Assembly (NCBI GenBank): GCA_028818775.1 | Contig: JAPPNE010000054.1 | Location: forward strand, 9,136 to 73,135 | Reading direction: 5' to 3' | Length of the DNA: 64,000 bases | Origin: Deltaproteobacteria bacterium | GTDB taxonomy: Bacteria > Desulfobacterota > Binatia > UBA9968 > JAJDTQ01 | In this document: positions 2 to 62,156 of the stretch, one piece after another | How the letters are laid out: every line of letters begins with the position of its first letter | Position numbering within the stretch: position 1 is the first letter of the stretch | Made by a program: the position numbers and the translations under genes | The notes under the pieces: model-generated | Databases searched by the model: none | Told to the model about the DNA's origin: nothing | The model's input: only the letters and a program-made list of their open reading frames with translations

Positions 2-2320
2 TGGCATGGTCTGGCCGTGGCACAGTCGCTGGTCAGCGAGGTTCGCGTCGCGGGCAACCTGAGGGTGGAGGAGGATGCCATCCGGTTGAGCATCCAGGCC
101 CAGCCGGGGGAACCGTTCGACGCCGAGATGGTGAACCGTGACGTCAAGGCCATCTACCGCATGGGTCTCTTCGATGACGTCAGCGCGGACTTCTCCGCCA
201 CCGGCGTTCTGACCTACACGGTCAAGGAACGCCCGTACGTGAGGGAGGTCCGGATCGCGGGCAACGACAAGGTGTCCACGGAGGACATCGAAGCGGCCCT
301 GGGGGTCCAGTTGCGCACGGCTCTGGACACCGCGCGTTTGCAGGAAGGATTGCAGCGGGTGCTGCGCCTCTACGGCGAGGCCGGCCACGTCAATACCCGG
401 GTCGACTACAACCTGACCCCGGCCGAGAACAACCAGACCATCGTGACCCTGAGCGTCTTCGAGGGCGAGACGCTGCTGATCCACAGGATTGCCTTCGAAG
501 GCAACCGCGCCTTCTCCGACGACGAGTTGAAGGACGTCATGGATACGAAGGAGCGGTGGTTCATTCCCTTCACCAGCCGCGGCCGCCTGGATCCGGACGT
601 CCTTACCAACGACACCGCGCAGTTGTCGTCGTTGTACTACGACAACGGGTTCGTGGACCACAAGATCGACGAGCCCATCGTCCTGCCGCGGGGCGAAGGC
701 CTGGAGGTCGTGATCCGCATCCAGGAAGGCGAACGCTACCGCGTCGGAGAGGTGAAGGTCGGCGGGGATATCGGCCGGACGCCGGAGCGGCTGCTGGAAC
801 GGGTCAGCCTCACCTCGGGGCAGGTTTTTCGCCGGAGCCGTCTGCTCAACGACGTGAACGCGCTGCAGGAACGCTACGCGGACCGCGGCTACGCCTTCGT
901 CGAGGTGACCCCTCGGACACGCTTCAACGTCGAAGAGCGGCTGGTGAACGTCAGCTACGTGGTCAAGCAGGGGCCGCTGGTCTACTTCGACGAGGTGAGG
1001 ATCGCCGGCAACGTCAAGACCCGGGACAAGGTGATCCGGCGGGAGCTCGAAGTGGCGGAGGAGGCACGGTTCTCCTCGGCGAGAGTCCGGGAGAGCCGCA
1101 ACGCCTTGTTGCGCACGGGCTTCTTCAAGGACGTGACCGTGTCCACGGAGAAGGCCGACCGGGATGACCGGATCAACCTGGTGGTGAACGTGGAGGAAGC
1201 GCCCACCGGTACCTTCAGCGTCGGCGCGGGCTACAGCACCGCCAGCGGGTTCTCCTTCCGAACCTCCCTGGAAGAACGCAACCTCTTCGGCACCGGACGG
1301 CGGGTGTCCGCGGACCTCACGCTGAGCAAAACCGACCAGGACATCGTCCTGGGCTTCGTGGAACCGCGCATTTTCGATACCCGCGCGGATCTCGGTTTCG
1401 ACGTTTTCCACACCACCGCGGAGTACGCCACGTGGACGAACCGGCGCAGCGGTTTCTCCACCCGGATCAGCGTTCCGTTGCGATACCTTCGCCTGCCGTA
1501 CCTCGGACGCCGCGCCGATGTCTGGCGCAGCGATGATCCGGACCTGGAGCCCGGGTTCTCCATCCTGGATCACCTTAACGGCGGCATCGGCTACACCTTT
1601 TTTCGTTCCAAGGTAACGGACGTGGACAACGACGCGCCGCTGAGTATCGAGCCGGGAGCATCCACCACGAGCGCGGTCACGCCGAGGCTTTCCTACGACA
1701 CGCGCAATCACTTCTTCTCCCCCACCGCGGGCACGCGCTCCACGCTGTCCGTCAAGCTGGCCGGGCTTGGGGGAGACAACCGCTTCATGCGCAGCGACTT
1801 CTCCATAGCCTGGTACTATCCCATTCTCGCGAATTTCGACTGGGGCAAGAGCTTTGCCCTGATGCTCGGAGGCCGGATCGGCTACGCGGACTCCTGGACG
1901 GAACGGCAATTGCCGCTGTTCGAACGCTACTTCGCCGGCGGCATCAACTCGGTGCGCGGGTACGAGTATCGTACCCTGGGTCCGCGGGAATGCCCGCGGG
2001 ACGATCCCGATTGCGACGACCCCGCGGCCGACGGCGAGGCCGTGGGCGGCAACAAGCAGCTCATCCTCAAGACCGAGCTGCACTTTCCGATCGCGAATCA
2101 ATGGGGTTTCCGGGGCTCCCTCTTCTTCGACCAGGGACAGGCGTTCGGCCCTGCCGAGAACATCCGTATCGAGGAGCTGAAGCGTTCGGTGGGGCTGGCG
2201 ATGCAGTGGCAGTCGCCCATCGGACCGGTCAGACTGAGTTGGGCTTACCCGGTGAACGCGGAGCCGACCGATCAGAAGGAGCTTCTCGGGTTCGCGTTCG
2301 GAGCGCTGGGCGGTTTTTGA
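2..2320 (+). CDS. bamA: Outer membrane protein assembly factor BamA, 5'-partial
   Basis: POTRA repeats (EVRIAGNVKTRDKVIRRE), barrel motifs GTFSVGAGYST and FAGGINSVRGYE, C-terminal Phe. The frame is open from base 2 (W-H-G-L-A-V-A-Q), so the start and signal peptide lie upstream of the window. Confidence 0.97.
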   Translation, partial: WHGLAVAQSLVSEVRVAGNLRVEEDAIRLSIQAQPGEPFDAEMVNRDVKAIYRMGLFDDVSADFSATGVLTYTVKERPYVREVRIAGNDKVSTEDIEAALGVQLRTALDTARLQEGLQRVLRLYGEAGHVNTRVDYNLTPAENNQTIVTLSVFEGETLLIHRIAFEGNRAFSDDELKDVMDTKERWFIPFTSRGRLDPDVLTNDTAQLSSLYYDNGFVDHKIDEPIVLPRGEGLEVVIRIQEGERYRVGEVKVGGDIGRTPERLLERVSLTSGQVFRRSRLLNDVNALQERYADRGYAFVEVTPRTRFNVEERLVNVSYVVKQGPLVYFDEVRIAGNVKTRDKVIRRELEVAEEARFSSARVRESRNALLRTGFFKDVTVSTEKADRDDRINLVVNVEEAPTGTFSVGAGYSTASGFSFRTSLEERNLFGTGRRVSADLTLSKTDQDIVLGFVEPRIFDTRADLGFDVFHTTAEYATWTNRRSGFSTRISVPLRYLRLPYLGRRADVWRSDDPDLEPGFSILDHLNGGIGYTFFRSKVTDVDNDAPLSIEPGASTTSAVTPRLSYDTRNHFFSPTAGTRSTLSVKLAGLGGDNRFMRSDFSIAWYYPILANFDWGKSFALMLGGRIGYADSWTERQLPLFERYFAGGINSVRGYEYRTLGPRECPRDDPDCDDPAADGEAVGGNKQLILKTELHFPIANQWGFRGSLFFDQGQAFGPAENIRIEELKRSVGLAMQWQSPIGPVRLSWAYPVNAEPTDQKELLGFAFGALGGF

Positions 2321-2346
2321 CGGCGCTGGTTGCCGGGCGGTATAAT
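2317..2346 (+). promoter_or_regulatory. sigma70-type internal promoter for skp-lpxD onward
   Basis: TTGACG (2317-2322, overlapping the bamA stop), 18 bp, then perfect TATAAT (2341-2346). Confidence 0.7.
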
Positions 2347-2370
2347 TGAGCTATATTCTTGTTGGAGGTT

Positions 2371-2898
2371 ATGGTGACCCGAGTCTGTGCGGTTCTCTTG
2401 TTGACGCTGCTGCTGACCCCCGCGTGGGGCCAGGAGCTCAAGGTCGGGTTCGTCAATCTACAGAGGGCCATAAGCTTGTCCGAGCGCGGCAAGAGCGCGC
2501 GCGCCCAGTTCCAGGCCTCGGTCAAGGACAAGCAGGATGCATTGCGGAAGGAGCAGCAGGCCATCGAGAAGGAGCAGCGGGACCTGCAGAAGCAAGGCGT
2601 CCTGATGAAGGAGAGCGAGCGGGCCAAGGCACAGCTCCGCTTCCAGCGGCGCGTGCGCGATTACGAGCGCGACAAGCGCGACATGCAGGAGGAATTGGCT
2701 CTCAGGGAACGCGAGATCACCGACGGTATCCTGAAGGACCTGCAAAAGATCATCGCGGAGCTGGGCAAGACCGGGAAGTTCACCATGATCCTTGAACGAA
2801 GCCAGCTTCTCTACACGGACAAGGGTACCGACGTCACCGATGACGTGATCAAGCTTTACGACGAGCGCTTCAAGAAGACGGCCGACAAGGACAGGTGA
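2371..2898 (+). CDS. skp: OmpH/Skp periplasmic chaperone
   Basis: Signal peptide, LKVGFVNLQRAI, coiled-coil body, C-terminal DVTDDVIKLY; GGAGG before ATG 2371; sits after bamA. Confidence 0.93.
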   Translation: MVTRVCAVLLLTLLLTPAWGQELKVGFVNLQRAISLSERGKSARAQFQASVKDKQDALRKEQQAIEKEQRDLQKQGVLMKESERAKAQLRFQRRVRDYERDKRDMQEELALREREITDGILKDLQKIIAELGKTGKFTMILERSQLLYTDKGTDVTDDVIKLYDERFKKTADKDR

Positions 2899-3950
2899 CC
2901 ACCTCAGGCAAATCGCTCGCGGAACTCGCCGAGCTCGTCGGCGGACGGGTGGCCGGTGACGCGGACGTGACCATCCAGAGGGTGTCTTCCATAGAGGACG
3001 CCGGCCCGGACGACATCACTTTTCTGGCCCATCCGCGCTACCGGGCGCATCTGGCCGCGTGCAACGCCGGCGCTGTCATCGTGGCCCACGATCTGCGCGC
3101 GGACGTCGCGCTCAACTTTCTTCACGTCGACGATCCCCACCGGGCGTTCGCGCAAATACACGCGTTGTTCAATCCCCCGGCCGTGCACGCGCCGGGCGTC
3201 AGCCCCTTGGCCGCCGTCGATCCGTCCGCCGTCGTGGAACCGGGCGCCAGCCTCTACCCTCAATGCTGCGTGGGAAAAGACGCCCGGATCGGCGAGAGGA
3301 CGGTGCTCATGCCTGGCGTGTCCGTCGGCGCCGGAGCGCGGCTCGGCCGTGATTGCGTGCTGCATCCCAACGTGACGGTGGCGGATGGCTGCCAGGTCGG
3401 CGACGGCGTCGTTCTTCACGCGGGCGTGGTCATCGGCAGCGACGGCTTCGGCTACGCGGGCCACGGTCCGGGGCGTCTCAAGGTGCCGCAGGCCGGGATC
3501 GTGGAGATCGGCGATCACGTCGAGATCGGCGCCAACACCGCCATCGATCGGGCCACCATCGGCAGCACCCGCATAGGGGCGGGCACGAAGATCGATAATC
3601 TCGTGCAGATAGGGCACAATGTGGTGGTCGGCGAACGGTGCCTGATCATCGCCCAGACGGGCATTGCCGGCAGCGCGGTGGTGGGTGACGACGTGGTGCT
3701 GGCCGGACAGGTGGGCGTCAAGGACCACGTGGAGATCGGCTCCCGGTCGGTGATCGGGCCCAAGAGCACCATCGTGCAATCGGTCCCGCCCGGCTCCGTG
3801 CTCTCCGGCCTGATCTCGGCCGCGCCGCACAAGGAGTGGCTCAGGGTGATACGGCTCCTGCCGAAACTGCCCGCGCTTTGGCGGCGGGTGGCCGAGATCG
3901 AGAGAGCCTTGCGCCTGACGGCCTCTACGGAGGACAAGGAGGTCCGGTAG
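2895..3950 (+). CDS. lpxD: UDP-3-O-acylglucosamine N-acyltransferase
   Basis: Hexapeptide repeats, IGSDGFGY, KIDNLVQIGHN. Confidence 0.97.
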   Translation: MTTSGKSLAELAELVGGRVAGDADVTIQRVSSIEDAGPDDITFLAHPRYRAHLAACNAGAVIVAHDLRADVALNFLHVDDPHRAFAQIHALFNPPAVHAPGVSPLAAVDPSAVVEPGASLYPQCCVGKDARIGERTVLMPGVSVGAGARLGRDCVLHPNVTVADGCQVGDGVVLHAGVVIGSDGFGYAGHGPGRLKVPQAGIVEIGDHVEIGANTAIDRATIGSTRIGAGTKIDNLVQIGHNVVVGERCLIIAQTGIAGSAVVGDDVVLAGQVGVKDHVEIGSRSVIGPKSTIVQSVPPGSVLSGLISAAPHKEWLRVIRLLPKLPALWRRVAEIERALRLTASTEDKEVR

Positions 3951-45812: not shown

Positions 45813-45936
45813 GCGGCCGGAAGACGGAGGGTGGCCCGGTCGTGCTTGCGGTGGCTCACTCGCCTGTGCTTCGAGGCGTTGCAGCCGTCGAAGCCAAGTG
45901 TTTTATTGATCCGAAGCGACTCGCAGGGAGGTAAAG

Positions 45937-46788
45937 ATGAAGAGCAACGGTTACGATCGCAAGGCGGACGACCTCGGCAACATCGTCGGGCTTGAACACG
46001 TGAACGTTACCATACCCGACCAGTCCACGGCCGTGACGTTCTACGTCCTGGGCCTCGGCCTGACCCGCGACCCCTACATGAACGTCGGTCTGAACAACAT
46101 GTGGGTCAACGTCGGCGGCCAGCAGTTCCATCTGCCCACCCGCGGGACCCAGAAGATTCCCGGCTACATCGGACTGGTCCTCTCCGACCTGGAGGCGCTG
46201 AAGCGCCGCCTGGCTGTGGTGGAGCCGGACCTCAAGGGGACCCGCTTCAAGTGGCGCGAGGCTGCCGACCACGTGGCGGTGACCGGTCCTTGGGGCAACC
46301 GGTTCCGTTGCCATGCCCCCGGACCGGAGTTCGGCGACATGACCATCGGCATGCCCTACTTGGAGTTTCTCACCCGCCCGGGCACCGCCCGCTCCATCGG
46401 CAAGTTCTACAAGACCGTGCTGCAGGCCCCGGTGGTCTACAAGACCGGCAGGGCGCGGGTGAAAGTAGGCCGCAACCAGAGCCTGATCTTCACCGAGACC
46501 GACGGCAGGATCCCCAAGTTCGACGGCCACCACATCGCCATCTACATCGCGAACCATTCTCGCGCCCATGAGTTCCTGCTGCGACGGGACCTCATCATGG
46601 AAGAGAGCAACGCGCACCAGTACCGCTTCAAGGACATCGTCGACCCGACGACGGGCGAGAAGGCCTTCGAGCTGGAGCACGAAGTGCGGAGCCTCTACCA
46701 CCCCATGGTCGGCCGCGTCATGGTGAACCGGAACGCCGGGCAGACCCAGCGGAACTACATGCCCGGACAGGACGCGTATTACCCATAG
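45937..46788 (+). CDS. VOC/glyoxalase superfamily protein
   Basis: LEHVNVTIPD, QFHLP, GHHIAIY, ELEHEVRS. Confidence 0.7.
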   Translation: MKSNGYDRKADDLGNIVGLEHVNVTIPDQSTAVTFYVLGLGLTRDPYMNVGLNNMWVNVGGQQFHLPTRGTQKIPGYIGLVLSDLEALKRRLAVVEPDLKGTRFKWREAADHVAVTGPWGNRFRCHAPGPEFGDMTIGMPYLEFLTRPGTARSIGKFYKTVLQAPVVYKTGRARVKVGRNQSLIFTETDGRIPKFDGHHIAIYIANHSRAHEFLLRRDLIMEESNAHQYRFKDIVDPTTGEKAFELEHEVRSLYHPMVGRVMVNRNAGQTQRNYMPGQDAYYP

Positions 46789-46803: not shown

Positions 46804-49344
46804 CTACGCCTTCTTGCCAAAAAGCTTTTCCATGCGTCCGAGGGCTGCGGCGATGTCGATCCCGGGTCCGTCCACTACCGGCAGAAGCGGGTCGGCTTTG
46901 CGCGCGAATCGTTGTACTGCCGTCTTGATCGTGAAGCGTCCGGGATCGAGCCTTGCGGTCACCTCGGTCCAACGGAGCGGGCAGGAGACGGGCGCGCCCG
47001 GCAGCGGCCGCAGCGAGAACGGCGCGGCGATGGTGCGGCCGTAGCCGTTCTGGCCGAAGTCGATGTAGACCTTGCCGTCGCGGGCGCGGAGCGGCCTTTG
47101 CACGGTGGCGATGTCGGGGAGCGCCTGCTCGCCGGCCATGGCCAGGAGGCGGGCGAAGGTGCGGCATTGCTCGTAGAGGTACCGCCGTCCCATGGGCACC
47201 AGCAGATGGAGCCCGGTGGCGCCCGATGTCTTGACCCACGCGCTCACTCCCAGTCTGTCCAGGATGCGTTTGATCTCGCGCGCGACCCGCACCACGTGTG
47301 TGAACGGGGCTCCCTTGGGGTCCAGGTCCAGTACCAGCCAGTCGGGGTATTCGAGTGAATCGAGCCGGCTGCCCCAGATATGCAGCGGGATCGTGCCGAG
47401 GTTGGCCACGTAGCGCAGGCTGTCCGTGTCGTTGACGATGAAGAAGTCGATGTCGCGCTCGGCGTCCTTGGAGTAGATGCGACGGGTGGCGATCCAGTCG
47501 GGCACGAAATCGGGCGCGTCCTTCTGGAAGAACGACTTGCCGTGAATGCCGTCCGGGAAACGCGTCAGCACCAGCGGACGGTCCCGGAGGTACGGCAGCA
47601 GCAACGGCGCGATGGCCGTGTAATAGTCGATGAGGTCGCTCTTGGTGTAGCCGTCCTCGGGCCAGAACACCTTGTCCGGGTTGGTGAGAGCCAGTTTGGG
47701 CGGGGCGGGACGGCGCCGCGGAGCGGTGGTTGCCGCCGGCGCTTCGGCCGGTCGTTCGGCGGGCGCGCCGGCCGGTGTTTCCGGCGGGTCTTCCCGGCGG
47801 CAATCCTCCGGCGCCTTGTCGTCGCGCAGGCCCATGAACGACGGGTGGCGCAGGCCACCATCATCCGTCCAATCGGCAAACTCCACCTCGCAGACGAGCC
47901 GCGGCCGCACCCAGCGGTGTCCGGTGCCCGCGGGCGATCCCGCGGCAAAAGGGGAGTCGTCACGCTCGAGCGCTATGAGCCTCTGGTGCACGGCGCGGAG
48001 AGTTCCCTGGTCGAAGCCCGTGCCCACCTTGGAGACGTACTCCAGCGCGCCTTGGCGGTAGAGCCCCAGGTGGAGTGCGCCGAAGTGCGGCCGAGAGCCG
48101 CCCGGCCTGGTGTAGCCGCCGATGACGAACTCCTGGCGTTTTCGGCACTTGAACTTCAGCCAATCGCGCGAGCGGCCGGCACTGTAACGGCTGTCCGCGC
48201 GCTTGGCGATGATCCCTTCCACGCGGTTCGCCGAGGCGGCGTGATAGAAATCCTCACCGCGCTCCGGGATGTGCTCCGTGTACACGACCACGCCGCGCTC
48301 CGGCACGAACATCGAAAGGCACTGTTTCCTCTGAGTCAAGGGGAGGGCGCGCAAGTCCCTGCCGGCGGCCTCCAGGCAATCGAAGAAGAAACCGCGCACG
48401 GGCACCGTCCGCGCCCCCTGCTCGATGTCGAACCGGTTGGTCAGGTGCATGCGCGGTTGCAGGCGCTGGAAGCTCGGCCGGCCGTTCTCGCCCATGGCGA
48501 CGACCTCGCCGTCGATCAGGAAGTCGGTGGGAGCGGTCTTGCTCAATGCGTGGACGATCTCCGGATAGCGCCGCGTCACGTCGTCGCCCTTGCGGCCGAA
48601 GAGCGTAACCGCGCCGTCGCGGCGCCGGGCGAGGATGCGGACGCCGTCGTACTTGATCTCGAAGACCCATCCGGGATCCGAGAAAGGGGCCGTGCCGAGG
48701 GAGGCCAGCATCGGTCTCGGCTTGCGCGCGTTCCCTGCCGCCGGCGCCTTGAAACGCTTCAGTGTCCGATCAAGGCGCGCAAGCCGCGAACGCGGGTCCT
48801 TCCGTTCCTCCACGGTGAGGCCGGACAGGATGGAGGCGGGCAACGCCTCCACCGGCTCCACGCCCGCCTCGGCTCCATCCTTGCTGAACAGCAGCCACTC
48901 CTTGTCGCCGCGTCCCATGCGCACGAGCATCCACACCCCGCGCAGCTTGTAGCCCCGGAGCTCGAACTCCAACGTGCCTTGGGCGAGCTGGTCGAGGGGA
49001 TCGGACGCGTGCAGGAGGCGGTAGGTGCCCTGGTCCCACAGGATGACGGCGCCGGCGCCGTAGTTGTCCCTGGGGATCACACCCTCGAAGTCGGCGTACT
49101 CGATGGGGTGGTCTTCCACATGCACCGCGAGGCGCTTCTCGTGGGAACGCACCGACGGGCCCTTGGGAACGGCCCAGCTCTTGAGGACGCCGCCCATCTC
49201 CAGGCGCAGGTCGTAGTGCATCGCCCGGGCGGCGTGCTGCTGCACCACGAACAGGCCGCCGCGGGAGACGCCTTGGCCGCCGAAGGCCTCCGGGGTGCGC
49301 TCGGGATCGCGCTTGCGCCGGTATTCATCCAGCGGCGCGGCCAT
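46804..49344 (-). CDS. ligD: Multifunctional NHEJ DNA ligase D (phosphoesterase-ligase-polymerase)
   Basis: PE: YRRKRD...QQHAARAMHYDLRLE...SWAVPKGP; ligase: EIKYDG, EGIIAK, WLKFK; polymerase: KTSGATGLH, DFGQNG, PFSLR. Start at 49344 or 49350. Confidence 0.97.
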   Translation of the reverse strand: MAAPLDEYRRKRDPERTPEAFGGQGVSRGGLFVVQQHAARAMHYDLRLEMGGVLKSWAVPKGPSVRSHEKRLAVHVEDHPIEYADFEGVIPRDNYGAGAVILWDQGTYRLLHASDPLDQLAQGTLEFELRGYKLRGVWMLVRMGRGDKEWLLFSKDGAEAGVEPVEALPASILSGLTVEERKDPRSRLARLDRTLKRFKAPAAGNARKPRPMLASLGTAPFSDPGWVFEIKYDGVRILARRRDGAVTLFGRKGDDVTRRYPEIVHALSKTAPTDFLIDGEVVAMGENGRPSFQRLQPRMHLTNRFDIEQGARTVPVRGFFFDCLEAAGRDLRALPLTQRKQCLSMFVPERGVVVYTEHIPERGEDFYHAASANRVEGIIAKRADSRYSAGRSRDWLKFKCRKRQEFVIGGYTRPGGSRPHFGALHLGLYRQGALEYVSKVGTGFDQGTLRAVHQRLIALERDDSPFAAGSPAGTGHRWVRPRLVCEVEFADWTDDGGLRHPSFMGLRDDKAPEDCRREDPPETPAGAPAERPAEAPAATTAPRRRPAPPKLALTNPDKVFWPEDGYTKSDLIDYYTAIAPLLLPYLRDRPLVLTRFPDGIHGKSFFQKDAPDFVPDWIATRRIYSKDAERDIDFFIVNDTDSLRYVANLGTIPLHIWGSRLDSLEYPDWLVLDLDPKGAPFTHVVRVAREIKRILDRLGVSAWVKTSGATGLHLLVPMGRRYLYEQCRTFARLLAMAGEQALPDIATVQRPLRARDGKVYIDFGQNGYGRTIAAPFSLRPLPGAPVSCPLRWTEVTARLDPGRFTIKTAVQRFARKADPLLPVVDGPGIDIAAALGRMEKLFGKKA

Positions 49345-49442
49345 GGCCATTCTCCGGACTGTGCATAACGTATGGAATTCTAAGGGTATTGCGTGGTAAA
49401 CTCCAACGCATCCAAACGTGCGCGGATCACGGAGGCCCTATC

Positions 49443-50552
49443 ATGGCAGCACGCGCCATCAGTTCCGGGACAATTTCCTTCGGCTTGGTATCGATCCCCA
49501 TCAAGCTCTACACCGCGGCGTCGTCCGGCGGCATCGCGTTCAACTTCCTGCACAACAAGTGCGGATCGCGCATGAAGCAGCAGCAGTTCTGCCCGGTGTG
49601 CGAGGAGGTGGTGCAACGTTCGGACCTGGTGCGCGGCTACGAGTTCACCAAGAACCAGTACGTGCGCTTCGAGAACGACGAGCTCAAGGCCCTCGAGGAA
49701 GAGACCTCCAAGGTCATCGAGCTGGAAGAGTTCGTGCCGCTGGCAAAGGTCGACCCGGTCTACTTCGAGAAGACCTACTACCTCGGCCCCGACAAGGGCG
49801 GCGACAAGCCCTACCGCCTGCTGGCCGACGCCATGGCTGAGTCCAACCACGTGGCGCTCGCCAAGTACGTGATGCGCGGCAAGGAGGGGCTGGTGCTGAT
49901 CCGCGCGGTGCGGGGCGGGCTCATGCTGCACACCATGTATTACGCGGACGAGGTGCGCGACTTCGACGAGATCGACCGGGGCCAGACGGTGCAGATCAAG
50001 GACGGCGAGCGGGATCTGGCGGTGCGCCTCATCAACGAACTGGTGCGCAAGGAGTTCCATCCGGAGAACTACCACGACGAGTACAAGGAACGGGTGCTGC
50101 GCCTGGTGGAGCAGAAGGTGGAGGGGAAGGAAGTCACGGCGCTGGAGCCGCAGGTGCGCCAGAGCCAGGTGGTGGACCTGATGGAAGCCCTCAAAGCGAG
50201 CCTGGAGCAGCACGACGGTGCGGCCAAGTCCAAGGCCAGGCCGGCGCGCGCGGCCGCGCGGACGCCCAAGGCGCCGGCGGCGGAGGCCGGAATCACTTTC
50301 GAGGAGTTCCAGACGGCGGTGGGCGAGTCCGGTCTGGAGGTGGGGGCCGCCGAGTTGAAACGCAGCTTCAACGGTCTCGCATCCCTCAAGAAGCGCAAGA
50401 AGCTTGCCGCCGGCGACGTGCGCGCCAAGGTGGTGAACCTGCGCAAGGACCTGGAGGTCGTCCGCTCCGACCCGGACCTCTTCGGCAGCGCGCCCAAGAA
50501 GCTCAAGGCCGCCCGCATCCCTCTGACCGGGCGCGACTGGGAACGCTACTGA
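49443..50552 (+). CDS. ku: NHEJ Ku protein with extra C-terminal domain
   Basis: SGTISFGLVSIPIKLY, VRGYE, YFEKTYYLGP, VVDLMEALKASL, then a basic linker and ~85 extra residues; GGAGG SD. Confidence 0.96.
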   Translation: MAARAISSGTISFGLVSIPIKLYTAASSGGIAFNFLHNKCGSRMKQQQFCPVCEEVVQRSDLVRGYEFTKNQYVRFENDELKALEEETSKVIELEEFVPLAKVDPVYFEKTYYLGPDKGGDKPYRLLADAMAESNHVALAKYVMRGKEGLVLIRAVRGGLMLHTMYYADEVRDFDEIDRGQTVQIKDGERDLAVRLINELVRKEFHPENYHDEYKERVLRLVEQKVEGKEVTALEPQVRQSQVVDLMEALKASLEQHDGAAKSKARPARAAARTPKAPAAEAGITFEEFQTAVGESGLEVGAAELKRSFNGLASLKKRKKLAAGDVRAKVVNLRKDLEVVRSDPDLFGSAPKKLKAARIPLTGRDWERY

Positions 50553-50586
50553 CGGGCCGCGCGCCGTCCGGCCCGCACTCGCCCAC

Positions 50587-51399
50587 ATGAGCGCCGAGAC
50601 CAAAGGCCGGGCGCACCCTGTCCTGGAGGCGGCCCGCCGGCTTCTCGATGACTGCGCCATCGAGCGCGCGCCGGTGGACTTGGTGCGCCTGGCGCGGCAC
50701 GTGGGCATCGGACGCATACGCGAACTGGACATTCGACTGGACGGCCAACTCCTGGAACACGGGGACGGCGACTACGAGGTCATCCTCAGCCGCAACGCGC
50801 CCCATACGCGCCGGCGCTTCACCCTGGCCCACGAAATCGGCCACATTCTCGTTGCCGATCACGAGAACGGCTCCATGAGCTGCGGCGACGGCCCCACCGA
50901 GGAGCTGTGCAACCGGGTGGCGGCGGAGTTGCTCATGCCCGACCGTTTCGTGCACGCGGCGATCACGGCGGACATGGACGTGTCGGGCTTCCGGCGATTG
51001 GCCACTCAGTTCCAGTGCTCCTTGGAGGCCACTGGCTGGCGCGTGCTCAATCTGGGGAAGATCACGGGCGCGTTGCTGGTCTGGCGGCAGCAGGACGGCG
51101 GCGGCCTGGAGTTGACCGCCGCGCCGCGCACGTTCGGCTTCGACCTTCCGTTCGACCCCGGCCATGTCCTTGAAGGCAACCTGCCGTTCGTGCGACAGTT
51201 GGCGCAACGAAGCGACGGGCCGCTCACCTACACGCATCCGGCGAGCGGGAAGCTCTACCGTGGCGACTATGTCCATTTGAACAAGGTGCTGTTGATGTTC
51301 TTCAAGACAGCAGGGGCCGCCGTCTCGAACCGCCGGCGGCGGGCGGCCGCGGCACCGGAGCAACGCGAGTTGTTCGGCCCGCGGGAGGTGGGTGAGTAG
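50587..51399 (+). CDS. ImmA/IrrE family (DUF955) Zn metallopeptidase
   Basis: APVDL, RRRFTLAHEIGH, EELCNRVAAELLMP, HTH-like LATQFQCSLEAT, further C-terminal domain. Confidence 0.9.
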   Translation: MSAETKGRAHPVLEAARRLLDDCAIERAPVDLVRLARHVGIGRIRELDIRLDGQLLEHGDGDYEVILSRNAPHTRRRFTLAHEIGHILVADHENGSMSCGDGPTEELCNRVAAELLMPDRFVHAAITADMDVSGFRRLATQFQCSLEATGWRVLNLGKITGALLVWRQQDGGGLELTAAPRTFGFDLPFDPGHVLEGNLPFVRQLAQRSDGPLTYTHPASGKLYRGDYVHLNKVLLMFFKTAGAAVSNRRRRAAAAPEQRELFGPREVGE

Positions 51400-51497
51400 C
51401 GTCCTTCGACTTCGCGCCGCTGACGCAGCGCTACGCTCAGGACGAACGGAGTTATTCCCGTTCGTCCTGAGCGTAGCGAAGCGAAGTCGAAGGACGC
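51399..51497. repeat. REP/MITE-like long inverted repeat
   Basis: Perfect 17-bp outer arms (51399-51415 / 51481-51497) and perfect 20-bp inner arms (51430-51449 / 51458-51477). Confidence 0.9.
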
Positions 51498-51536: not shown

Positions 51537-52049
51537 ATGAAGCCAATGGAGACCATCGATCTCACGGCTCTGATGGAGAAGACCGAAGCCGAGGGCAACG
51601 GCCGCACGGTGGTGTGGCAGGACTCGGAGTCCATCGCGTTCCTGAGCAGCGGGCGCAAGCGCCGCATGGACTTCCACGTGGACCCGAGCGACGAGGTGAC
51701 GCTGGTGCTGAAAGGTGAACAGCGCCTCCATTGCCTCACCGGTGACGGCGAGGAAAAGGTCGTGACCATGGGTGCGGGGCAGATGACCCTGTGTCCGGGC
51801 GGCGTGCCGCATTCGCCGCGCGTCGACCCGGGGACTTGGTTCCTCGTTTTCGAGCGGGTGCGCAAGCCGGGCGAGCAGGACCGGTTCATGTGGTTCTGCG
51901 AGAGCTGCGGCAAGAAGGTGTACGAGGTGGACGTCACCGTGGGGAACTACAGCGACGACCCCGTGGGGCAGGTTCACCGGGAGTTCTACGGAGACGACAA
52001 GCTTCGTACCTGCGGTGACTGCGGCAGCGTCGTTCCCAAGCCGGAGTAG
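51537..52049 (+). CDS. 3-hydroxyanthranilate 3,4-dioxygenase-like cupin with rubredoxin-type site
   Basis: VWQDSE, RMDFHVDPSDE, PHSPR, FERVR, CESC...RTCGDC. Confidence 0.8.
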   Translation: MKPMETIDLTALMEKTEAEGNGRTVVWQDSESIAFLSSGRKRRMDFHVDPSDEVTLVLKGEQRLHCLTGDGEEKVVTMGAGQMTLCPGGVPHSPRVDPGTWFLVFERVRKPGEQDRFMWFCESCGKKVYEVDVTVGNYSDDPVGQVHREFYGDDKLRTCGDCGSVVPKPE

Positions 52050-52109
52050 GCGCGCAAAAGGGCAGGGACGGCGGCACGCAACGGAACGGCATATTCCCGG
52101 GACGCACGC

Positions 52110-52871
52110 ATGATGGATTACGGCAAGGCATTGGAACGGCTGGCCGAGGGCTATGGCAAGGCCGAACGGGAAGTCGTCGCCAGCTACTTCGGCACACCGC
52201 ACGCGCCCGAAGACCACATCCCGTGGCTCAAGGCCCAGGCCTTCAAGGAATACTCGGCCATCCAGCCGCTGGTGCATGCCCTCGATAAGCTCTACCCGCA
52301 GCTCGACCGGCAGGTGGACCGCCACGACTACGAAGAGCTGTGCCACAAGCTCGGCGACGAGATGAGCCACGCCCGGCTGATCATGGATTTCCTGGAGGAG
52401 TTGACCGGGAAGCGGCTGACGCAGAAGGACCTGACGTGGCTGCCGGAGGACCGCAATCTCGCCGAGGTGCGGGCGCGCTACTCGCGCAGCTACGCCGGGC
52501 TGCTGCACGGCTCCGAGCGCATCACCACGAGTGAGATCCAGCGGCGCGACGAGGCCCTGGAGCGCGCCGCCATCACCCTGACCGAGGGAGGCGGGGGCGC
52601 CCTGTACGAGGTGTGCCGCCACCTCAAGGGGAACCGCACCAACCGACGCATCGCGTCCATCTTCGGACACATCCATCGCGACGAGACCAAGCACAGCGAC
52701 GCCAACGAGCTGGAGGTGCTGGTCAAGACCCGCAAGCATCACGACCGCGCCCGGCGCATCATCGCGGACGTGTCATCCCAGCGTCTGCGCATGCGCAACG
52801 AGCAGTTCGGGTTCCCACTGAATCGTGGCGAGCTGCGCACGCTGGAGCGGGAGTGTACACGGGCGGCCTAG
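52110..52871 (+). CDS. Ferritin-like (di-iron carboxylate) protein
   Basis: Helical; ligand pattern KEYS ... DEMSH ... TEGGG ... DETKH. Confidence 0.65.
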   Translation: MMDYGKALERLAEGYGKAEREVVASYFGTPHAPEDHIPWLKAQAFKEYSAIQPLVHALDKLYPQLDRQVDRHDYEELCHKLGDEMSHARLIMDFLEELTGKRLTQKDLTWLPEDRNLAEVRARYSRSYAGLLHGSERITTSEIQRRDEALERAAITLTEGGGGALYEVCRHLKGNRTNRRIASIFGHIHRDETKHSDANELEVLVKTRKHHDRARRIIADVSSQRLRMRNEQFGFPLNRGELRTLERECTRAA

Positions 52872-52938
52872 CCGGGAGTGTAGGGCGCAAGGCAGGGTGG
52901 GCCTGACCCGGCCCGCGCAAATCAACCAGGAGGTTACC

Positions 52939-54057
52939 GTGAACACGGATGCAATGCCGGTCATCGACATGGACTCGCACGTCGAGGAACCCAAGGAGGC
53001 CTGGGAGCACCTCGACTCGAAATACGCGGATCGGAAACCCTTTCCGGTGGTGGCCAAGGACCTGCCGGTGTTGGGCGGCATCAACGCCTTCTGGTACATC
53101 GACGGCACCGTTTACCCCAAGCCCGTGGGCCGGGGAAACCTCGTGTACGGCACGCCGATCGAGATGCGCTTTGCCACCCAGAAGGAGTTTACCATCGGCT
53201 CCCAGACCATGACCGACATCCCCGCGCGCCTCAAGGACATGGACGCGGTGGGCATCGACGTCCAGGTGGTGTTCTCCACGGTCTTTCTCCAACCGGTCAC
53301 CGACGACCTCCTGTTCGAGGCCGCGCTCATGCGCAGCTACAACACCTGGATGGCGTCGGCCTGCGCGGAAGCCCCGGACCGCATGAAGTGGGGCGCCATC
53401 CTGCCCATGCGGGACCCGCGACTGGCCCTGGACGAGCTCGAACACAGCCTGAAGCTGGGCGCCTCGGTAGCGGGGATCTACGGCACCGTGGGCGAGACCA
53501 TGCTGCACGACCGCTACTACGATGACTTCTTCGCCGAGGTGGAGCGGTTGGGCGTGCCGCTGGCCATCCATGCCGGCTGGAGCCATCCAGGCATCACCCG
53601 CAGCATGGATGACGTCTCGGGCTCCCGCGCCATCGGCTTTACCCTCCCCGTGATGATGGGATTCTACAGCTTCCTGGGCGGCGGCATCCTGGAACGGCAC
53701 CCGCGCCTCCGGGTCGCGTTCATGGAGATCGGCGTGCAGTGGGTGCCCTATCTGGTGCAGCGGATCGACCACTACCACTACGCGGACGGTGCCTTGGGAA
53801 TGCCGCTGCCCGTCAAGCAGCCGGTGTCCGAGACCCTCAAGCAGAGCGACGTGTACTTCACCCCGGAAGCGGACGAGATCTACCTGCCTCAGGTGGCCGA
53901 GTACATCGGCGAGGACCGGCTGCTGTTCGAGGGCGACATGCCCCACGCCGAGGCCCGGGAAGGCGCCAAGCAGGAGATCCTGGAAAGGGACGACATCTCG
54001 GAAGAGCTAAAGTGGAAGATCCTGAGCGTCAACGGCAAGCGCTTCCTCAACCTGTGA
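52939..54057 (+). CDS. Amidohydrolase_2 family protein (decarboxylase/hydratase-like)
   Basis: IDMDSHVEEP, LAIHAG, FMEIGVQW, EGDMPHAE; AGGAGG before GTG. Confidence 0.88.
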   Translation: MNTDAMPVIDMDSHVEEPKEAWEHLDSKYADRKPFPVVAKDLPVLGGINAFWYIDGTVYPKPVGRGNLVYGTPIEMRFATQKEFTIGSQTMTDIPARLKDMDAVGIDVQVVFSTVFLQPVTDDLLFEAALMRSYNTWMASACAEAPDRMKWGAILPMRDPRLALDELEHSLKLGASVAGIYGTVGETMLHDRYYDDFFAEVERLGVPLAIHAGWSHPGITRSMDDVSGSRAIGFTLPVMMGFYSFLGGGILERHPRLRVAFMEIGVQWVPYLVQRIDHYHYADGALGMPLPVKQPVSETLKQSDVYFTPEADEIYLPQVAEYIGEDRLLFEGDMPHAEAREGAKQEILERDDISEELKWKILSVNGKRFLNL

Positions 54058-54068
54058 CGGATACCCGC

Positions 54069-54260
54069 ATGACCCCCGAGGCGCTGGCCGACAAGATTCT
54101 GGAGCGGCTGAAGGACGGCCCGCTCCACTTCGAGGACATCCTGCTGCAGTTCCCGGAGGCGCCCTACCGGGTGGTGCTCCAGGCCTGGGGCCGTCTGCGC
54201 GAAGCAGGCTCGCTCGGGCGCGAGATCGAGACCGGGAAATATGTAGCCAACGAGGACTGA
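54069..54260 (+). CDS. Small hypothetical protein, winged-helix-like
   Basis: 63 aa, MTPEALADKILERLKDGPLHFEDI...WGRLREAG; tightly spaced (11 and 2 bp gaps) in the operon. Confidence 0.6.
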   Translation: MTPEALADKILERLKDGPLHFEDILLQFPEAPYRVVLQAWGRLREAGSLGREIETGKYVANED

Positions 54261-54262
54261 CT

Positions 54263-55027
54263 ATGGCTCAAGACTTCGACGGCAAGGTCATCATCGTTAC
54301 CGGCGGCGCCCGCGGCATCGGCCAGGTGTACTCCCAGGAGCTGGCCAAGGCCGGCGCCAGGGTGGTGGTATCGGACATCCTGGACGGCGAGCCCTGCGCC
54401 TCCGGGATACGCGAGGACGGCGACGAAGCCTTCTTCGTCAAGGCCGACGTCACCAGCGAGGACAGCGTCAAGGAGCTGGCCGGGGCGGCCCACGACCGCT
54501 ACGGCCGCATCGACGGGCTGGTGAACAACGCGGCGATATTCGCCGACGTCCGCTACGCGCCGTTCGACGAGATCAGCGTGGCCGAGTGGGACCAGGTGAT
54601 GGACGTGAACGTCAAGGGCGTGTGGCTGGCGTCGCGGGCGGTGTACCCGTACATGAAGGAGCAGGGCTCCGGCAAGATCGTCAACATCGCCTCCGGCGTG
54701 CCCTTCAAGGGCATTCCGGTCTACGTCCACTACACGGTGTCCAAGGGAGCGGTGGTGGCGCTCACACGCGTGCTCGCGCGGGGCACCGGCAAGGACGGCA
54801 TCTGCGTCAACGCCGTGGCCCCGGGCCTCACCCGCAGCGAGAGCCTGCTGGCGATGCGCGGCGGGCTGGTGGACGAGGACGACGTGCCGCAGATCCAGAG
54901 CCGCGCCATCCCCCGGAGCCAATACCCCGAGGACATCGTCGGCGCCGTCATGTTCTTCCTCTCGGACGCCGCCAACTTCATCACCGGACAGACGCTGCTG
55001 GTGGACGGCGGCTCCTACATGCACTGA
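54263..55027 (+). CDS. SDR family oxidoreductase
   Basis: TGGARGIG, NNAA, YTVSK, NAVAPG. Confidence 0.92.
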   Translation: MAQDFDGKVIIVTGGARGIGQVYSQELAKAGARVVVSDILDGEPCASGIREDGDEAFFVKADVTSEDSVKELAGAAHDRYGRIDGLVNNAAIFADVRYAPFDEISVAEWDQVMDVNVKGVWLASRAVYPYMKEQGSGKIVNIASGVPFKGIPVYVHYTVSKGAVVALTRVLARGTGKDGICVNAVAPGLTRSESLLAMRGGLVDEDDVPQIQSRAIPRSQYPEDIVGAVMFFLSDAANFITGQTLLVDGGSYMH

Positions 55028-55034
55028 GATTGCC

Positions 55035-56402
55035 ATGAGCCAAGCGGACAGATTGCCGTACCGCGACATGCGCGGCCTGGTGGCGCTGCTGGAAGCCGAG
55101 GGACAGCTCCGGCGCATCACCAAGCCGGTGGAAGCCCGCTATCTCAACACACTGCTGGCTCAGGCCGACACCGCGCTCCTCATGGAAAACGTCGAGGGCT
55201 ACTCCATGCCCGTGGTGGGCGGGCTGGTGGGTTCCCGCCAGCGGGTGGCGCTGGGGCTGGGCTGCGACCAGAGGACCCTCGGGCGCACCTTCATGGACGC
55301 CCTGGACAATCCCATCGCGGCCGAGGTGGTGGCCGAGGGCACGGCCCAGGAAGTGGTCAAGACCGGTGACGAGATAGACCTCACCGAGTTGCCGATACCA
55401 TTCCAGCACCGGAAGGACGGCGGCCCCTACCTTTCGGCGGGCATCTCGGTCTCAAAGGACGACGCCGGACGGCGCAACGCCGGCTGCTACCGGCTCATGT
55501 ACCGCACGCCGCGGGAGACCAGCATCGACCTGGTGTCGCCGTCGGACATGCGCTTCAGCTACGAGGCCGCCCTCAAGCGCAACGAGCCGCTGCCCCTGGC
55601 CGTCGCCTTCGGCACCGGCACTCCGGAGCTCATCGCCGCCGCCTACAAGGCTCCGCCGGGCTACGACGAGTTCGCCGTGGCGGGCGCGCTGTACGGGCGG
55701 CCGGTTCCCCTGGTCAAGTGCAAGACCGTGGACCTGGAGGTGCCCGCCGACGCCGAGCTCGTCCTGGAAGGGGAGATCTCAACCGATGGCTGGACCATCG
55801 ACGAGGGGCGCTACGGCGACTTCACCGGACACCAGTGCTCGATCCGCTGGAACCCGGTGTTCAAGGTGAAGGCGGTGACCCACCGCAGGAACCCGATCCT
55901 CCACACCATCCTGATGCCGTGGGAGAACGACTGGCTGGAGGCGCCGCCGCTGGAGGCCGCGGGATGGCGCGCGCTGCGCGAGGCCAGCATCAAGACCGTG
56001 GCGGTCTACGCCACCCCCGGAAGCGCCTGTTACTGGCACCTCTACGCTTCCATCGACAAGCGCCCGGGCGAAGGCAAGAACGCCCTGATGGCGCTGATGT
56101 CGCTGCACGCCCTCAAGCTCGTGGTGGTCACCGACGGCGACGTCGAGCTCACCGACCCCATGGCGGTGGAGCGCGCCATGGCCTTCCGGGTCCAGCCCGA
56201 CGAGGACGTCATCATCGTCTCCGGCGCCCGCGGCAAGCACCTCGACCCCACCCTCAAAGCCTCCCGGCTGCCCAAGGGCGCCCTCCCCACCACCTCCAAG
56301 ATGGGCATCGACGCCACCATCCCCGACGACGTCGACCCGGCGGAGTACGAGCTGCTGGAGTATCCCTTCATGGACGAGGTCAAGCTGGAAGACTACTTCT
56401 AA
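55035..56402 (+). CDS. UbiD family prFMN-dependent (de)carboxylase
   Basis: KDGGPYLSAG, NAGCYR, VPADAELVLEG, EGRYGDFTGH, SKMGIDAT. Confidence 0.92.
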   Translation: MSQADRLPYRDMRGLVALLEAEGQLRRITKPVEARYLNTLLAQADTALLMENVEGYSMPVVGGLVGSRQRVALGLGCDQRTLGRTFMDALDNPIAAEVVAEGTAQEVVKTGDEIDLTELPIPFQHRKDGGPYLSAGISVSKDDAGRRNAGCYRLMYRTPRETSIDLVSPSDMRFSYEAALKRNEPLPLAVAFGTGTPELIAAAYKAPPGYDEFAVAGALYGRPVPLVKCKTVDLEVPADAELVLEGEISTDGWTIDEGRYGDFTGHQCSIRWNPVFKVKAVTHRRNPILHTILMPWENDWLEAPPLEAAGWRALREASIKTVAVYATPGSACYWHLYASIDKRPGEGKNALMALMSLHALKLVVVTDGDVELTDPMAVERAMAFRVQPDEDVIIVSGARGKHLDPTLKASRLPKGALPTTSKMGIDATIPDDVDPAEYELLEYPFMDEVKLEDYF

Positions 56403-61029: not shown

Positions 61030-62156
61030 AGCTGGTGCTGGAGAAGCGCGCGGAGCGCAGCCGGACCATGCAGGTGGCCTCTCCGCTCCTCGCGGTGGCC
61101 CTCACCATGCTGCTCGGAAGCATCCTCTTCGCCGCCCGCGGCATCGATCCGCTGCACGCCATCCATGTCTACTTCATCAGTCCCCTGACCACGCTTTGGT
61201 CGGTGGAGGAGCTCATCGTCAAGGCCACCCCGCTGGTCCTGATCGGCGCGGGTCTAGCCATCTGCTTTCGCGCCAACCTCTGGAACATCGGCGCGGAAGG
61301 CCAGCTCATCGCCGGCGCTCTTGCCGGCGCCTCCATACCCATCCTGGCGCCCCAGTGGGACTCGGCTCTGGCGATCCCCGCCATGCTGCTGCTGGGGATG
61401 CTCGGCGGCATGGCGTGGGCGGGGGTCCCCGCGCTCCTGCGCAACCGCTTCGGAGCCAACGAGATCCTCACCAGCCTCATGCTGGTGTACGTGGCGCAGT
61501 ATCTCCTGGACTGGCTCGTGCGCGGACCGTGGCGCGACCCCCAGGGATTCAACTTCCCCAAGTCCATCGGTTTCAACGACTGGCATCTGCTGGCCACCTT
61601 CGGCGACGGGCGGGTGCATCTCGGCGCCGTTTTCGCGCTCATCGCGGCGGCGCTGCTGGCCGTGTTCATGGCGCGCACGCTCATGGGCTTCGAGATCCGG
61701 GTAAGGGGAGAGGCCCCGCGCGCCAGCACCTTCGGCGGCTTTTCGGTTCCCGGGACCACTTGGTTCTGCTTCGGCATCTCCGGCGCCCTGGCCGGACTGG
61801 CGGGCATCTGCGAGGTCGCCGGTCCCGTCGGCCAACTCCAGCCCACCATCTCGCCGGGCTACGGCTTCACCGCCATCATCGTGGCCTTTCTCGGGCGGCT
61901 CAATCCACTGGGCGCGGTTTTCGGCGGACTGGTCCTGGCTATCTGCTACCTTGGCGGCGAGGCCGCCCAGGTAGAGCTGTCCATATCCGAGAAGATGGCG
62001 CAGGTGTTCCAGGGCATGCTGTTGTTCTTCATCCTGACCTGCGACACGCTGGTCCGTTGCCGCGTCCGAGTGGAGTGGACGGCCGCAACCCCGTTCGCCC
62101 TGAGCGTAGCGAAGCGAAGTCGAAGGGCGCACGTTCCCAGCGGAGTAGCCCCATGA
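61026..62156 (+). CDS. ABC permease 1 (nucleoside uptake)
   Basis: WNIGAEGQ, GANEILTSLML, GYGFTAIIVAFLGR. Confidence 0.92.
   Translation: MKLVLEKRAERSRTMQVASPLLAVALTMLLGSILFAARGIDPLHAIHVYFISPLTTLWSVEELIVKATPLVLIGAGLAICFRANLWNIGAEGQLIAGALAGASIPILAPQWDSALAIPAMLLLGMLGGMAWAGVPALLRNRFGANEILTSLMLVYVAQYLLDWLVRGPWRDPQGFNFPKSIGFNDWHLLATFGDGRVHLGAVFALIAAALLAVFMARTLMGFEIRVRGEAPRASTFGGFSVPGTTWFCFGISGALAGLAGICEVAGPVGQLQPTISPGYGFTAIIVAFLGRLNPLGAVFGGLVLAICYLGGEAAQVELSISEKMAQVFQGMLLFFILTCDTLVRCRVRVEWTAATPFALSVAKRSRRAHVPSGVAP
62091..62130. repeat. Half copy of the 51399-51497 REP-like element, inside the permease CDS
   Basis: 38/40 identical to 51458-51497 by direct comparison. Confidence 0.9.

Follow-up and report, generated by a model that had tools for sequence, protein, structure and literature searches.

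The described partners of the M78/IrrE protease family are XRE repressors. IrrE cuts the repressor DdrO at L106/R107 of its 129 residues, removing the last 23, and the irrE and ddrO genes are unlinked in Deinococcus. In ImmR-ImmA and other COG2856-Xre pairs, the protease and XRE substrate genes are adjacent (PMC2701414). A 'cysteine switch' involving C114 and D117/D118 has been described in CapP, the protease of the CapP-CapH pair, and R90 of CapP, like R85 of PprI, belongs to a patch that binds single-stranded DNA (ssDNA) (PMC10904395, PMC13228613). Here, we describe an M78 metallopeptidase gene with a different kind of neighbour. It lies in a 64,000-nt stretch of contig JAPPNE010000054.1 from a Deltaproteobacteria bacterium (the window, meaning the whole stretch of DNA that was analysed), directly downstream of a gene for Ku, which ends in a tail domain that we call KTD.

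A first interpretation of this DNA, made from its letters alone (the sequence-only reading), had wired the protease to end joining and supposed that a linkage between ku-ligD and an IrrE-type gene had not been described. Our full-text searches found no paper linking M78, COG2856 or IrrE-type proteases with Ku or LigD, in agreement with that supposition. In bacteria, non-homologous end joining (NHEJ) counts as a minimal system of two proteins whose regulation acts mainly through transcription or growth phase, and we know of no dedicated protease for Ku. In eukaryotes, Ku rings are unloaded by ubiquitin/p97 extraction; to our knowledge, no bacterial solution to Ku-ring unloading has been found. 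We propose, with a probability of about 55%, that an ssDNA-sensing protease with KTD as its cognate partner clips the Ku tail and thereby switches Ku post-translationally. As judged from the sequences, the substrate class, the domain KTD and the protease subfamily would be new, and the mechanism is put forward as a proposal.

In the window, ku starts with the ATG at 49443, preceded 7 nt upstream by the Shine-Dalgarno sequence GGAGG, and its stop codon occupies 50550-50552. The peptidase gene (50587..51399, plus strand, 270 aa) follows after a 34-bp spacer (50553..50586, plus strand) that holds a weak GGGCCG/CGGCCC hairpin without a T tract, and a scan found no terminator-like site in this spacer. 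The coordinates and the scan both agree with the arrangement given in the sequence-only reading (a gap of 34 bp with a short hairpin devoid of a T tract). In the relatives, the spacer measures 3–75 bp and the two genes are likewise on the same strand.

Ku is 369 aa long, and Foldseek matches it to Ku of B. subtilis and M. tuberculosis. Its core (residues 1-254; 49443..50204, plus strand; PF02735, E 2.5e-49) scores 296.6 bits against the Ku_bact model TIGR02772 (cutoff 150) and ends in the arm helix QVVDLMEALKASL. Given that this model covers only residues 4-254, about 115 residues are extra. The first of them form a basic Ala/Lys/Arg/Pro low-complexity linker (residues 255-283; 50205..50291, plus strand), which varies in sequence and length among relatives and in which residues 258-282 have a predicted local distance difference test score (pLDDT) below 50. 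KTD itself follows (residues 284-369; 50292..50549, plus strand), a C-terminal domain of ~85 aa with three helices, a loop and the terminal motif KAARIPLTGRDWERY. Its terminus, of the form KAARIPLTxRDWERY, is highly conserved and rich in invariant residues, and KTD is kept in every Ku of this lineage. No meaningful match to KTD was found in Pfam (E up to 10) or by profile search of the PDB sequences, so that its identity with HTH_3, SAP or another known domain is not supported, and in Foldseek the Ku model gave matches to Ku cores alone.

In B. subtilis and M. tuberculosis, a minimal C-terminal arm of Ku is followed by a variable basic extension that modulates DNA binding, threading and LigD recruitment (PMC4889933, PMC9638933). 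The Ku studied here shares this order of arm and basic extension. However, the extensions are unstructured in those two species, whereas KTD is a folded domain of ~85 aa that also occurs outside Ku and is genetically linked to a protease; no Ku extension comparable to KTD was found in the literature searched.

The evidence for this coupling comes from the neighbourhoods of related proteases. Proteins were considered members of the subfamily when they scored at least 210 bits over positions 1-264 of its hidden Markov model, ordinary M78 proteins reaching at most 126 bits and only in the peptidase domain; the subfamily is distinct and comprises about 65 clusters. Sixteen loci encode a full-length member with its upstream DNA visible (the window, L001-L004, L081-L085, L166-L169, L174 and L175), and in 16/16 a gene ending in KTD lies directly upstream on the same strand, 3–75 bp away. 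Ku is the carrier in 13 of these 16 loci (the window, L001-L004, L081-L085 and L166-L168). Moreover, neither KTD nor Ku nor LigD was found at any of about 155 generic M78 loci in genomes and metagenomes, and no XRE or HTH_3 gene adjoins the subfamily protease in the 16 loci, adjacency alone being considered.

The KTD of the other three loci ends proteins unrelated to Ku. In L169, it terminates a HAD-like protein of 438 aa with a match to PDC-S34, a candidate defence family of PADLOC (E 1e-55); the protease gene begins after a further 3 bp, and its product is 36% identical to the window protease over the full length (E 3e-45). In L174 and L175, KTD terminates an HD-domain, dNTPase-like protein whose gene is frameshifted in the assembly, with the protease gene 47 bp further in L174 and overlapping in L175. 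Since KTD is found upstream in 16/16 loci on three unrelated kinds of carrier, we conclude from the gene neighbourhoods that the conserved partner of the protease is KTD, and not Ku as such or LigD. By the same comparison, ku and the protease gene are a conserved two-gene module. A maximum-likelihood tree of the protease resolves three clades that match the three kinds of carrier, the Ku-linked clade holding 52 clusters with a stem support of 94/100.

The adjacency could also be inherited synteny of a single lineage, devoid of functional meaning, and indeed more than 10 kb of gene order is shared by the window, L001-L004 and L166-L168. However, the pair outlives a complete loss of the surrounding synteny. 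In L082 and L083, Ku and the protease are encoded 8 bp apart in a wholly different neighbourhood, flanked by LysR and Fe-S cluster genes and without LigD, at ~40% protease identity. The pairing of KTD and protease also recurs on two unrelated non-Ku carriers, and KTD is absent from the control loci. Chance and pure synteny were rejected on the grounds of the L082 neighbourhood and of the recurrence on other carriers; to judge from these comparisons, the adjacency of KTD and protease is not due to chance, and synteny without function is a highly improbable explanation.

These findings bear on what the sequence-only reading had left at stake. The pairing, which might have been unique to this genome, is kept down to ~40% protease identity, and no XRE gene that could serve as a cognate partner adjoins the protease in any relative. 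LigD, which had been counted as part of the unit, is not obligatory, as the pair in L082 has no ligD beside it; in the window, L001-L004, L081, L084, L085 and L166-L168, ligD and ku are divergent. The connection with end joining holds as far as the pairing with Ku is concerned, and fails in its restriction to NHEJ, the unit being better described as a KTD-tagged protein plus an M78 protease. Finally, two targets had been offered, the Ku tail and a distant repressor of the ligD/ku promoters. The 16/16 linkage with KTD speaks for the tail, and the distant repressor is less favoured.

Some observations at these loci concern the carriers and the protease family themselves. The HAD-like KTD protein of L169 (P0129) is encoded at 1864-3180, and PDC-S34, which it matches, is an unvalidated defence candidate of PADLOC; because of this match, some PDC-S34 proteins may be controlled by a CapP-like protease. 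In L174 (3536-5953), the HD-domain gene, with the motif ADLLDYAHRD, seems to be split by frameshifts in a long-read assembly, and two CopG-antitoxin-like genes stand just upstream of it. L086 (3093-3563) encodes a shortened subfamily-type M78 protein of 156 aa without a KTD gene upstream, probably a decayed copy; upstream of it lies, as judged by eye, an excisionase-like helix-turn-helix (HTH) protein, possibly with a PAS domain.

The protease matches PF06114 with E 5.4e-14 and 52.5 bits (cutoff 22). Its peptidase domain (about residues 1-130) carries the HEIGH motif at residues 82-86 (50830-50844), E105, which is the third zinc ligand by alignment with IrrE, and a loop cysteine, C99. According to the AlphaFold2 model and Foldseek, HTH-like helices (about residues 131-156) and a GAF-like domain (about residues 157-243) follow, and the protein ends in a disordered basic tail (residues 244-270, pLDDT < 50); all these parts are encoded on the plus strand. 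Searching the PDB sequences with the protease profile returned IrrE (5.8e-11), a PprI orthologue and CapP (3.6e-8), and the PADLOC capP model matches the protease at E 2e-24, which is the best sequence-profile match in that collection. It reaches 28.6 bits against the NCBIfam spr1629 repressor/antitoxin model (cutoff 335). The sole named subfamily member is called 'ImmA/IrrE family metallo-endopeptidase' by NCBI and nothing more specific.

The AlphaFold2 model of the protease, built on 26 relatives, has a pLDDT of 84 and a predicted template modelling (pTM) score of 0.80. Its full-length Foldseek matches are PprI (8sln, 8slm), IrrE (3dti, 3dte) and CapP (7t5t), with E 2e-11 to 7e-10 and template modelling (TM) scores of 0.61–0.72; these are followed by entries for transcriptional regulators of M. 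tuberculosis (6cyj and related) and by GAF domains on their own. Because the alignments with the PprI, IrrE and CapP structures extend over 243–279 columns, the whole folded length, we assign to the protease the architecture of peptidase, HTH-like and GAF-like domains. The features read from the letters alone, an intact HEIGH motif with a downstream glutamate, an HTH-like middle and a further C-terminal domain, are thus recovered by PF06114, by E105 and by the structural model, and the two fold types named there, IrrE/PprI and CapP, are both among the top full-length matches.

The residues H82, E83, H86, E105, R75 and W166 are invariant in 65/65 subfamily members. R75 lies seven residues before the first histidine, at the position of PprI R85 and CapP R90, and W166 sits in the first strand of the GAF-like domain. 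Moreover, 53/65 members have a loop cysteine 13 residues after the second histidine, followed by an acidic residue (C99-G-D101 here). The ratio of nonsynonymous to synonymous substitution rates (dN/dS) is 0.18–0.35 for the protease gene and 0.10–0.16 for ku, showing that the former is under purifying selection and evolves faster than ku. Overall, the protease looks functional and IrrE/CapP-like and, by analogy with these enzymes, is probably activated by ssDNA.

The likeness to IrrE/PprI-DdrO lies in the same three-part architecture, the top structural match (8sln, 3dti; E 2e-11, TM 0.63–0.72), the identical active-site positions (H82/E83/H86) and the arginine kept in ssDNA patch 1 (R75 here, R85 in D. 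geothermalis PprI). In contrast to that system, the identity is only ~20%, the partner is a novel helical domain on Ku or other enzymes and is encoded by the adjacent gene, the predicted output is post-translational instead of transcriptional, and the protease has in addition a C-terminal Qxx[LM]F motif and a loop resembling a cysteine switch. With CapP-CapH, the present pair shares the PADLOC capP match, the full-length match to 7t5t, the cysteine-switch-like loop and the adjacency of the partner genes, and two KTD carriers look defence-related (PDC-S34 and dNTPase-like). Unlike CapP-CapH, it has no CapH-like HTH partner and no defence operon in the window, and the predicted substrate domain is fused to the effector. 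PADLOC detected no defence protein among the tested window neighbours, and it is only in the distant relative L169 that a candidate defence protein is linked. ImmA-ImmR and the COG2856-Xre pairs have in common with it the M78 catalytic domain and the adjacent genes of protease and substrate, but ImmA is devoid of the HTH-like and GAF-like domains, has an XRE repressor as partner and is associated with mobile elements. Nor does the window neighbourhood hold an Xre, RelE or PIN gene of the type II toxin-antitoxin-like COG2856-Xre kind.

Given that the fold and the conserved residues match those of repressor-cleaving enzymes, one may ask whether the protease works in a classical circuit of the IrrE-DdrO type, cleaving an unlinked XRE repressor of the ligD/ku promoters, perhaps of a wider damage regulon, its place after ku serving co-expression only. 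The unlinked irrE and ddrO genes of Deinococcus offer a precedent. A possible operator site is also at hand, since the 92-bp region between ligD and ku holds a conserved block of ~29 nt, GGAATTCTAAGGGTATTGCGTGGTAAACT (49374..49402, plus strand), which is the only well-conserved stretch in an alignment of the ku upstream regions (window, L001-L004, L084 and L081). It ends in a -10-like TAAACT (49397-49402), which is TAGACT or TACACT in relatives. From its sequence, this block probably serves as the ku promoter, perhaps with an operator inside it; a sigma-70 scan of the ligD-ku intergenic region detected no canonical promoter. However, a palindrome considered as a conserved operator between ligD and ku, TAACACG-N17-CGTGTTA, is found in L002-L004 and is not kept in the window or L001. 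Such a circuit would also leave unexplained why KTD is present in 16/16 loci and why the protease follows KTD-ending HAD-like and HD-domain proteins, and no XRE gene adjoins it in the 16 loci. We therefore regard a circuit of this type as unlikely.

We return to the clipping of Ku, for which KTD offers a candidate site. Between helix 3 and the terminal motif lies a flexible, exposed loop, SDPDLFGS (Ku residues 342-349; 50466..50489, plus strand), modelled with low confidence. A loop insert of the type [ST]xP[DE]LFxG is present in most protease-linked KTDs, namely those of the Ku lineage, of P0129 and of L174 (for example SDPDLFGS in the window, STPDLFNG in P0129 and RSADLFEG in L174), while its position is an alignment gap in KTDs without an adjacent protease (P0110-P0128, P0122). 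From its sequence and distribution, the loop is a candidate cleavage or recognition site, and KTD is predicted to be the domain that the downstream protease recognises and takes as its substrate.

We infer a physical interaction, activation by ssDNA, cleavage at a given site, clamp binding and an effect on NHEJ, which might be linked as follows. As in PprI and CapP, ssDNA arising from DNA damage or end resection would bind the groove between the peptidase and GAF-like domains, including the invariant R75, and would free the CapP-like cysteine-switch loop (C99-G-D101). The activated protease would then cut the KTD loop in the vicinity of SDPDLF (Ku residues 342-349) or, instead, the linker, and so remove the terminal peptide KAARIPLTxRDWERY, the last ~20 residues being released in a manner comparable to the action of IrrE on DdrO. 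The activity of Ku would thereby be altered post-translationally, and in either of two directions: an autoinhibited Ku might be released, or Ku might be disabled or unloaded once resection has begun. A post-translational output is expected because the place of the XRE repressor is taken here by a domain that forms part of the effector. Through its C-terminal Qxx[LM]F motif, the protease is probably held at the beta sliding clamp, unless the motif serves as a pseudo-substrate.

KTD is not restricted to this setting. A profile search of 1.84 billion representative proteins yielded only 37 hits, carried by Ku (of this lineage and one further), a REC fusion, proteins with a CV_2116 domain, HAD-like proteins and short stand-alone proteins. 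No KTD relative was found in plasmid and viral collections, and no subfamily protease in the plasmid collection. The idea that KTD is specific to protease-linked Ku was discarded, since KTD is also carried by REC, by CV_2116-domain proteins and by a further lineage of Ku and exists by itself, in several of these cases with no protease next to it. P0110 is a direct fusion of a response-regulator receiver domain with KTD, and this arrangement suggests that KTD is able to serve for output or interaction. P0117, P0119, P0124, P0130, P0134 and P0140 (L165 and L170-L172) are proteins of ~195 aa composed of a CV_2116-like domain, a motif resembling the Ku arm (VIDxxxALKxSL), a linker and KTD; in this family the C-terminal arm and tail of Ku seem to have been transplanted onto another domain, and no protease adjoins. 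The gene next to the CV_2116-KTD protein of L165 encodes a response-regulator receiver.

KTD exists alone and on REC domains, as might be expected of an interaction or output module, and this would also suit an interaction of protease and KTD without cleavage of Ku. The protease might bind stoichiometrically, or KTD might be a sensor or inhibitor of a protease with other substrates, such that DNA-loaded Ku would activate or recruit it. The strict adjacency of KTD and protease points to functional coupling without telling its direction, and the M78 protein Rir binds the repressor Crh without demonstrable cleavage (PMC12828697). Nevertheless, the invariance of the catalytic residues in 65 members implies that proteolysis is under selection, the loop insert of the protease-linked KTDs looks like a site offered to an active site, and the characterised GAF-bearing homologues (IrrE/PprI and CapP) cleave the product of their partner gene. 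An interaction without cleavage thus appears doubtful, though it deserves to be kept in mind.

The protease has a further feature that might bear on where it acts. After the basic disordered linker, within the last 27 residues, it carries the short motif QRELF (residues 259-263; 51361..51375, plus strand). Motifs of the form Qxx[LM][FL] or QxxLx[FL] are found in the last 20 residues of 53/67 subfamily members, compared to 2/23 generic M78 proteins, and include QRELF, QGELF, QGKLF, QGKLAF, QTSLF, QSALF and QPDLF. The consensus for binding of the bacterial beta clamp by C-termini is QL(S/D)LF (PMC9690074), which these motifs fit in form and place, with G or R rather than L at position 2. From this resemblance, the Qxx[LM]F motif probably tethers the protease to the beta sliding clamp on DNA; alternatively, it could be a pseudo-substrate, since it resembles the KTD loop ([DE]LF). 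The QxxLF motif, the Cys loop and the 'ELF' loop of KTD are jointly lost in one Ku-linked subclade of nine members (L082 and L085 types), which suggests that the three are coupled. Two independent co-losses of the KTD loop and QxxLF had been considered and were given less weight, as the tree shows a single 9-member subclade, hence one event. Two generic M78 proteins, P0166 and P0055, end in clamp-binding-like motifs as well (QQTLF and QLRLL), and clamp tethering might be more widespread among M78 proteases.

A clamp-tethered protease could instead be a general clean-up enzyme of DNA-associated proteins, analogous to SPRTN/Wss1, for which Ku would be the commonest client, held on DNA as a ring left behind by ligation or through an AP-lyase crosslink (AP, apurinic/apyrimidinic). 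The analogy is functional only: SPRTN/Wss1 are eukaryotic, DNA-dependent HExxH metalloproteases with a peptide that binds the sliding clamp, and the enzyme described here, likewise an HExxH protease, predicted to be DNA-activated and to bear a clamp-binding peptide, could remove protein from DNA. In addition to the motif in 53/67 members and the predicted ssDNA-activated HExxH fold, an AP/deoxyribose phosphate (dRP) lyase activity that proceeds through covalent intermediates is reported for bacterial Ku (PMC4245934). However, there is no homology to SPRTN, and SPRTN is a general DNA-protein-crosslink protease, whereas the subfamily seems dedicated to KTD-bearing partners. A protease of general action would have no use for a ~85-aa domain set aside for it on its neighbour, neither the HAD-like nor the HD-domain partner is an obvious candidate for trapping on DNA, and the motif is missing in one Ku-linked subclade. 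A clean-up role is accordingly quite unlikely.

Several observations weigh against the proposed clipping of Ku by its neighbour. Only two independent non-Ku contexts are available (L169 and L174/L175), most Ku-linked loci come from one syntenic lineage, and since all Ku-linked proteases form one clade, the linkage with Ku arose once. The pair is kept in the L082/L085-type subclade without the ELF loop, the Cys loop or QxxLF, so that the loop is not universally required. Moreover, KTD is found without an adjacent protease on Ku in L164, on CV_2116-domain proteins in L165 and L170-L172 and in the REC fusion; KTD must therefore do something by itself, and serving as a handle for a protease need not be its sole role. 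As IrrE and DdrO are unlinked in Deinococcus, the protease could also have a distant XRE substrate. Finally, the metatranscriptome contig on which co-transcription partly relies may stem from contaminating DNA.

This contig, of 773 nt, comes from a coral metatranscriptome and belongs to a relative that is ~91% identical. It spans 50339-51087, running from the KTD part of ku through the spacer into the protease gene. This junction-spanning contig, together with spacers of 3–75 bp and the lack of terminators, makes it likely that ku and the protease gene are co-transcribed, and the separate transcription that the sequence-only reading had named as a possible objection did not emerge.

If the clipping of Ku were true, the IrrE/CapP paradigm of repressor cleavage by a damage-sensing protease would extend to direct control of an effector through a portable tag domain, and KTD would be defined as a new domain along with a new protease subfamily bearing a probable clamp-binding motif. 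This would provide a handle on the choice between NHEJ and recombination and on how Ku rings leave DNA. A wider reading, possible and offered only tentatively, is that KTD and its protease form a portable post-translational switch sensing DNA damage or phage, activated by ssDNA and tethered to the clamp, which would clip KTD off any carrier: Ku, HD-type dNTPases, PDC-S34 defence proteins and possibly response regulators. Because the same module recurs on dNTPase-like and PDC-S34 proteins, it would be tied to the regulation of anti-phage defence. Acting on Ku, such a switch would give bacteria a means to license NHEJ, or to take Ku rings off DNA after the onset of resection or repair synthesis.

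The remaining features of the locus concern the NHEJ pair. LigD, with which Ku works in end joining (46804..49350, minus strand, 848 aa; PF13298, PF01068, PF04679 and PF21686) scores 565.6 bits against TIGR02776 (cutoff 373.2) and has all three modules, LigD_N (3'-phosphoesterase), ATP-dependent ligase and primase-polymerase (Prim-Pol). The window thus encodes a genetically linked NHEJ pair, Ku_bact and a multidomain LigD, divergent and 92 bp apart, close to the ~95 bp given for a three-domain ligD in the sequence-only reading. Domain scans, and PADLOC on the tested neighbours, found no XRE, phage or known defence gene adjoining the module in the window, consistent with the absence of a repressor, phage or defence neighbour noted there.

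On one side, the module is flanked by two TldD/PmbA genes and a conserved unknown 283-aa protein (45937-46788, plus strand), which belongs to no Pfam or NCBIfam family and has a weak Glyoxalase match (E 0.018). Its identity in L001-L003 is 84–86%, and L166-L168 likewise have a called gene of 283 aa in this position between ligD and the TldD/PmbA pair; a minus-strand open reading frame that overlaps its gene (45856-46701) is less conserved and probably not real. On the other side, a co-oriented downstream operon (51537-56402) encodes a 3-HAO-like cupin, an unknown 253-aa protein, an amidohydrolase_2 protein, an SDR protein and UbiD. Close relatives share its synteny, L081 and L082 do not, and it has no relation to the Ku-protease pair.

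The window sequence occurs in sponge and coral metagenomes, and its closest genomic relatives are metagenome-assembled genomes labelled Candidatus Binatia, Thermodesulfobacteriota or Syntrophobacterales. The peptidase stop codon is also the start of a palindrome of ~100 nt with inverted repeats (51399..51497, strand not assigned), resembling repetitive extragenic palindromic (REP) elements or miniature inverted-repeat transposable elements (MITEs); the hairpin said to close the unit is therefore where it was placed, as a dispersed repeat. A further copy lies near 62091 (about 62091-62111). In three metagenomic runs, the palindrome reaches a depth of 460–1800 compared to 10–25 in the flanks, and the flanking sequences differ among copies. 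This very high depth and the variety of flanks mark the palindrome as a high-copy family of repeats dispersed in this lineage and not as a specific part of the system; in metagenome assemblies from sponges and corals, its abundance is extreme.

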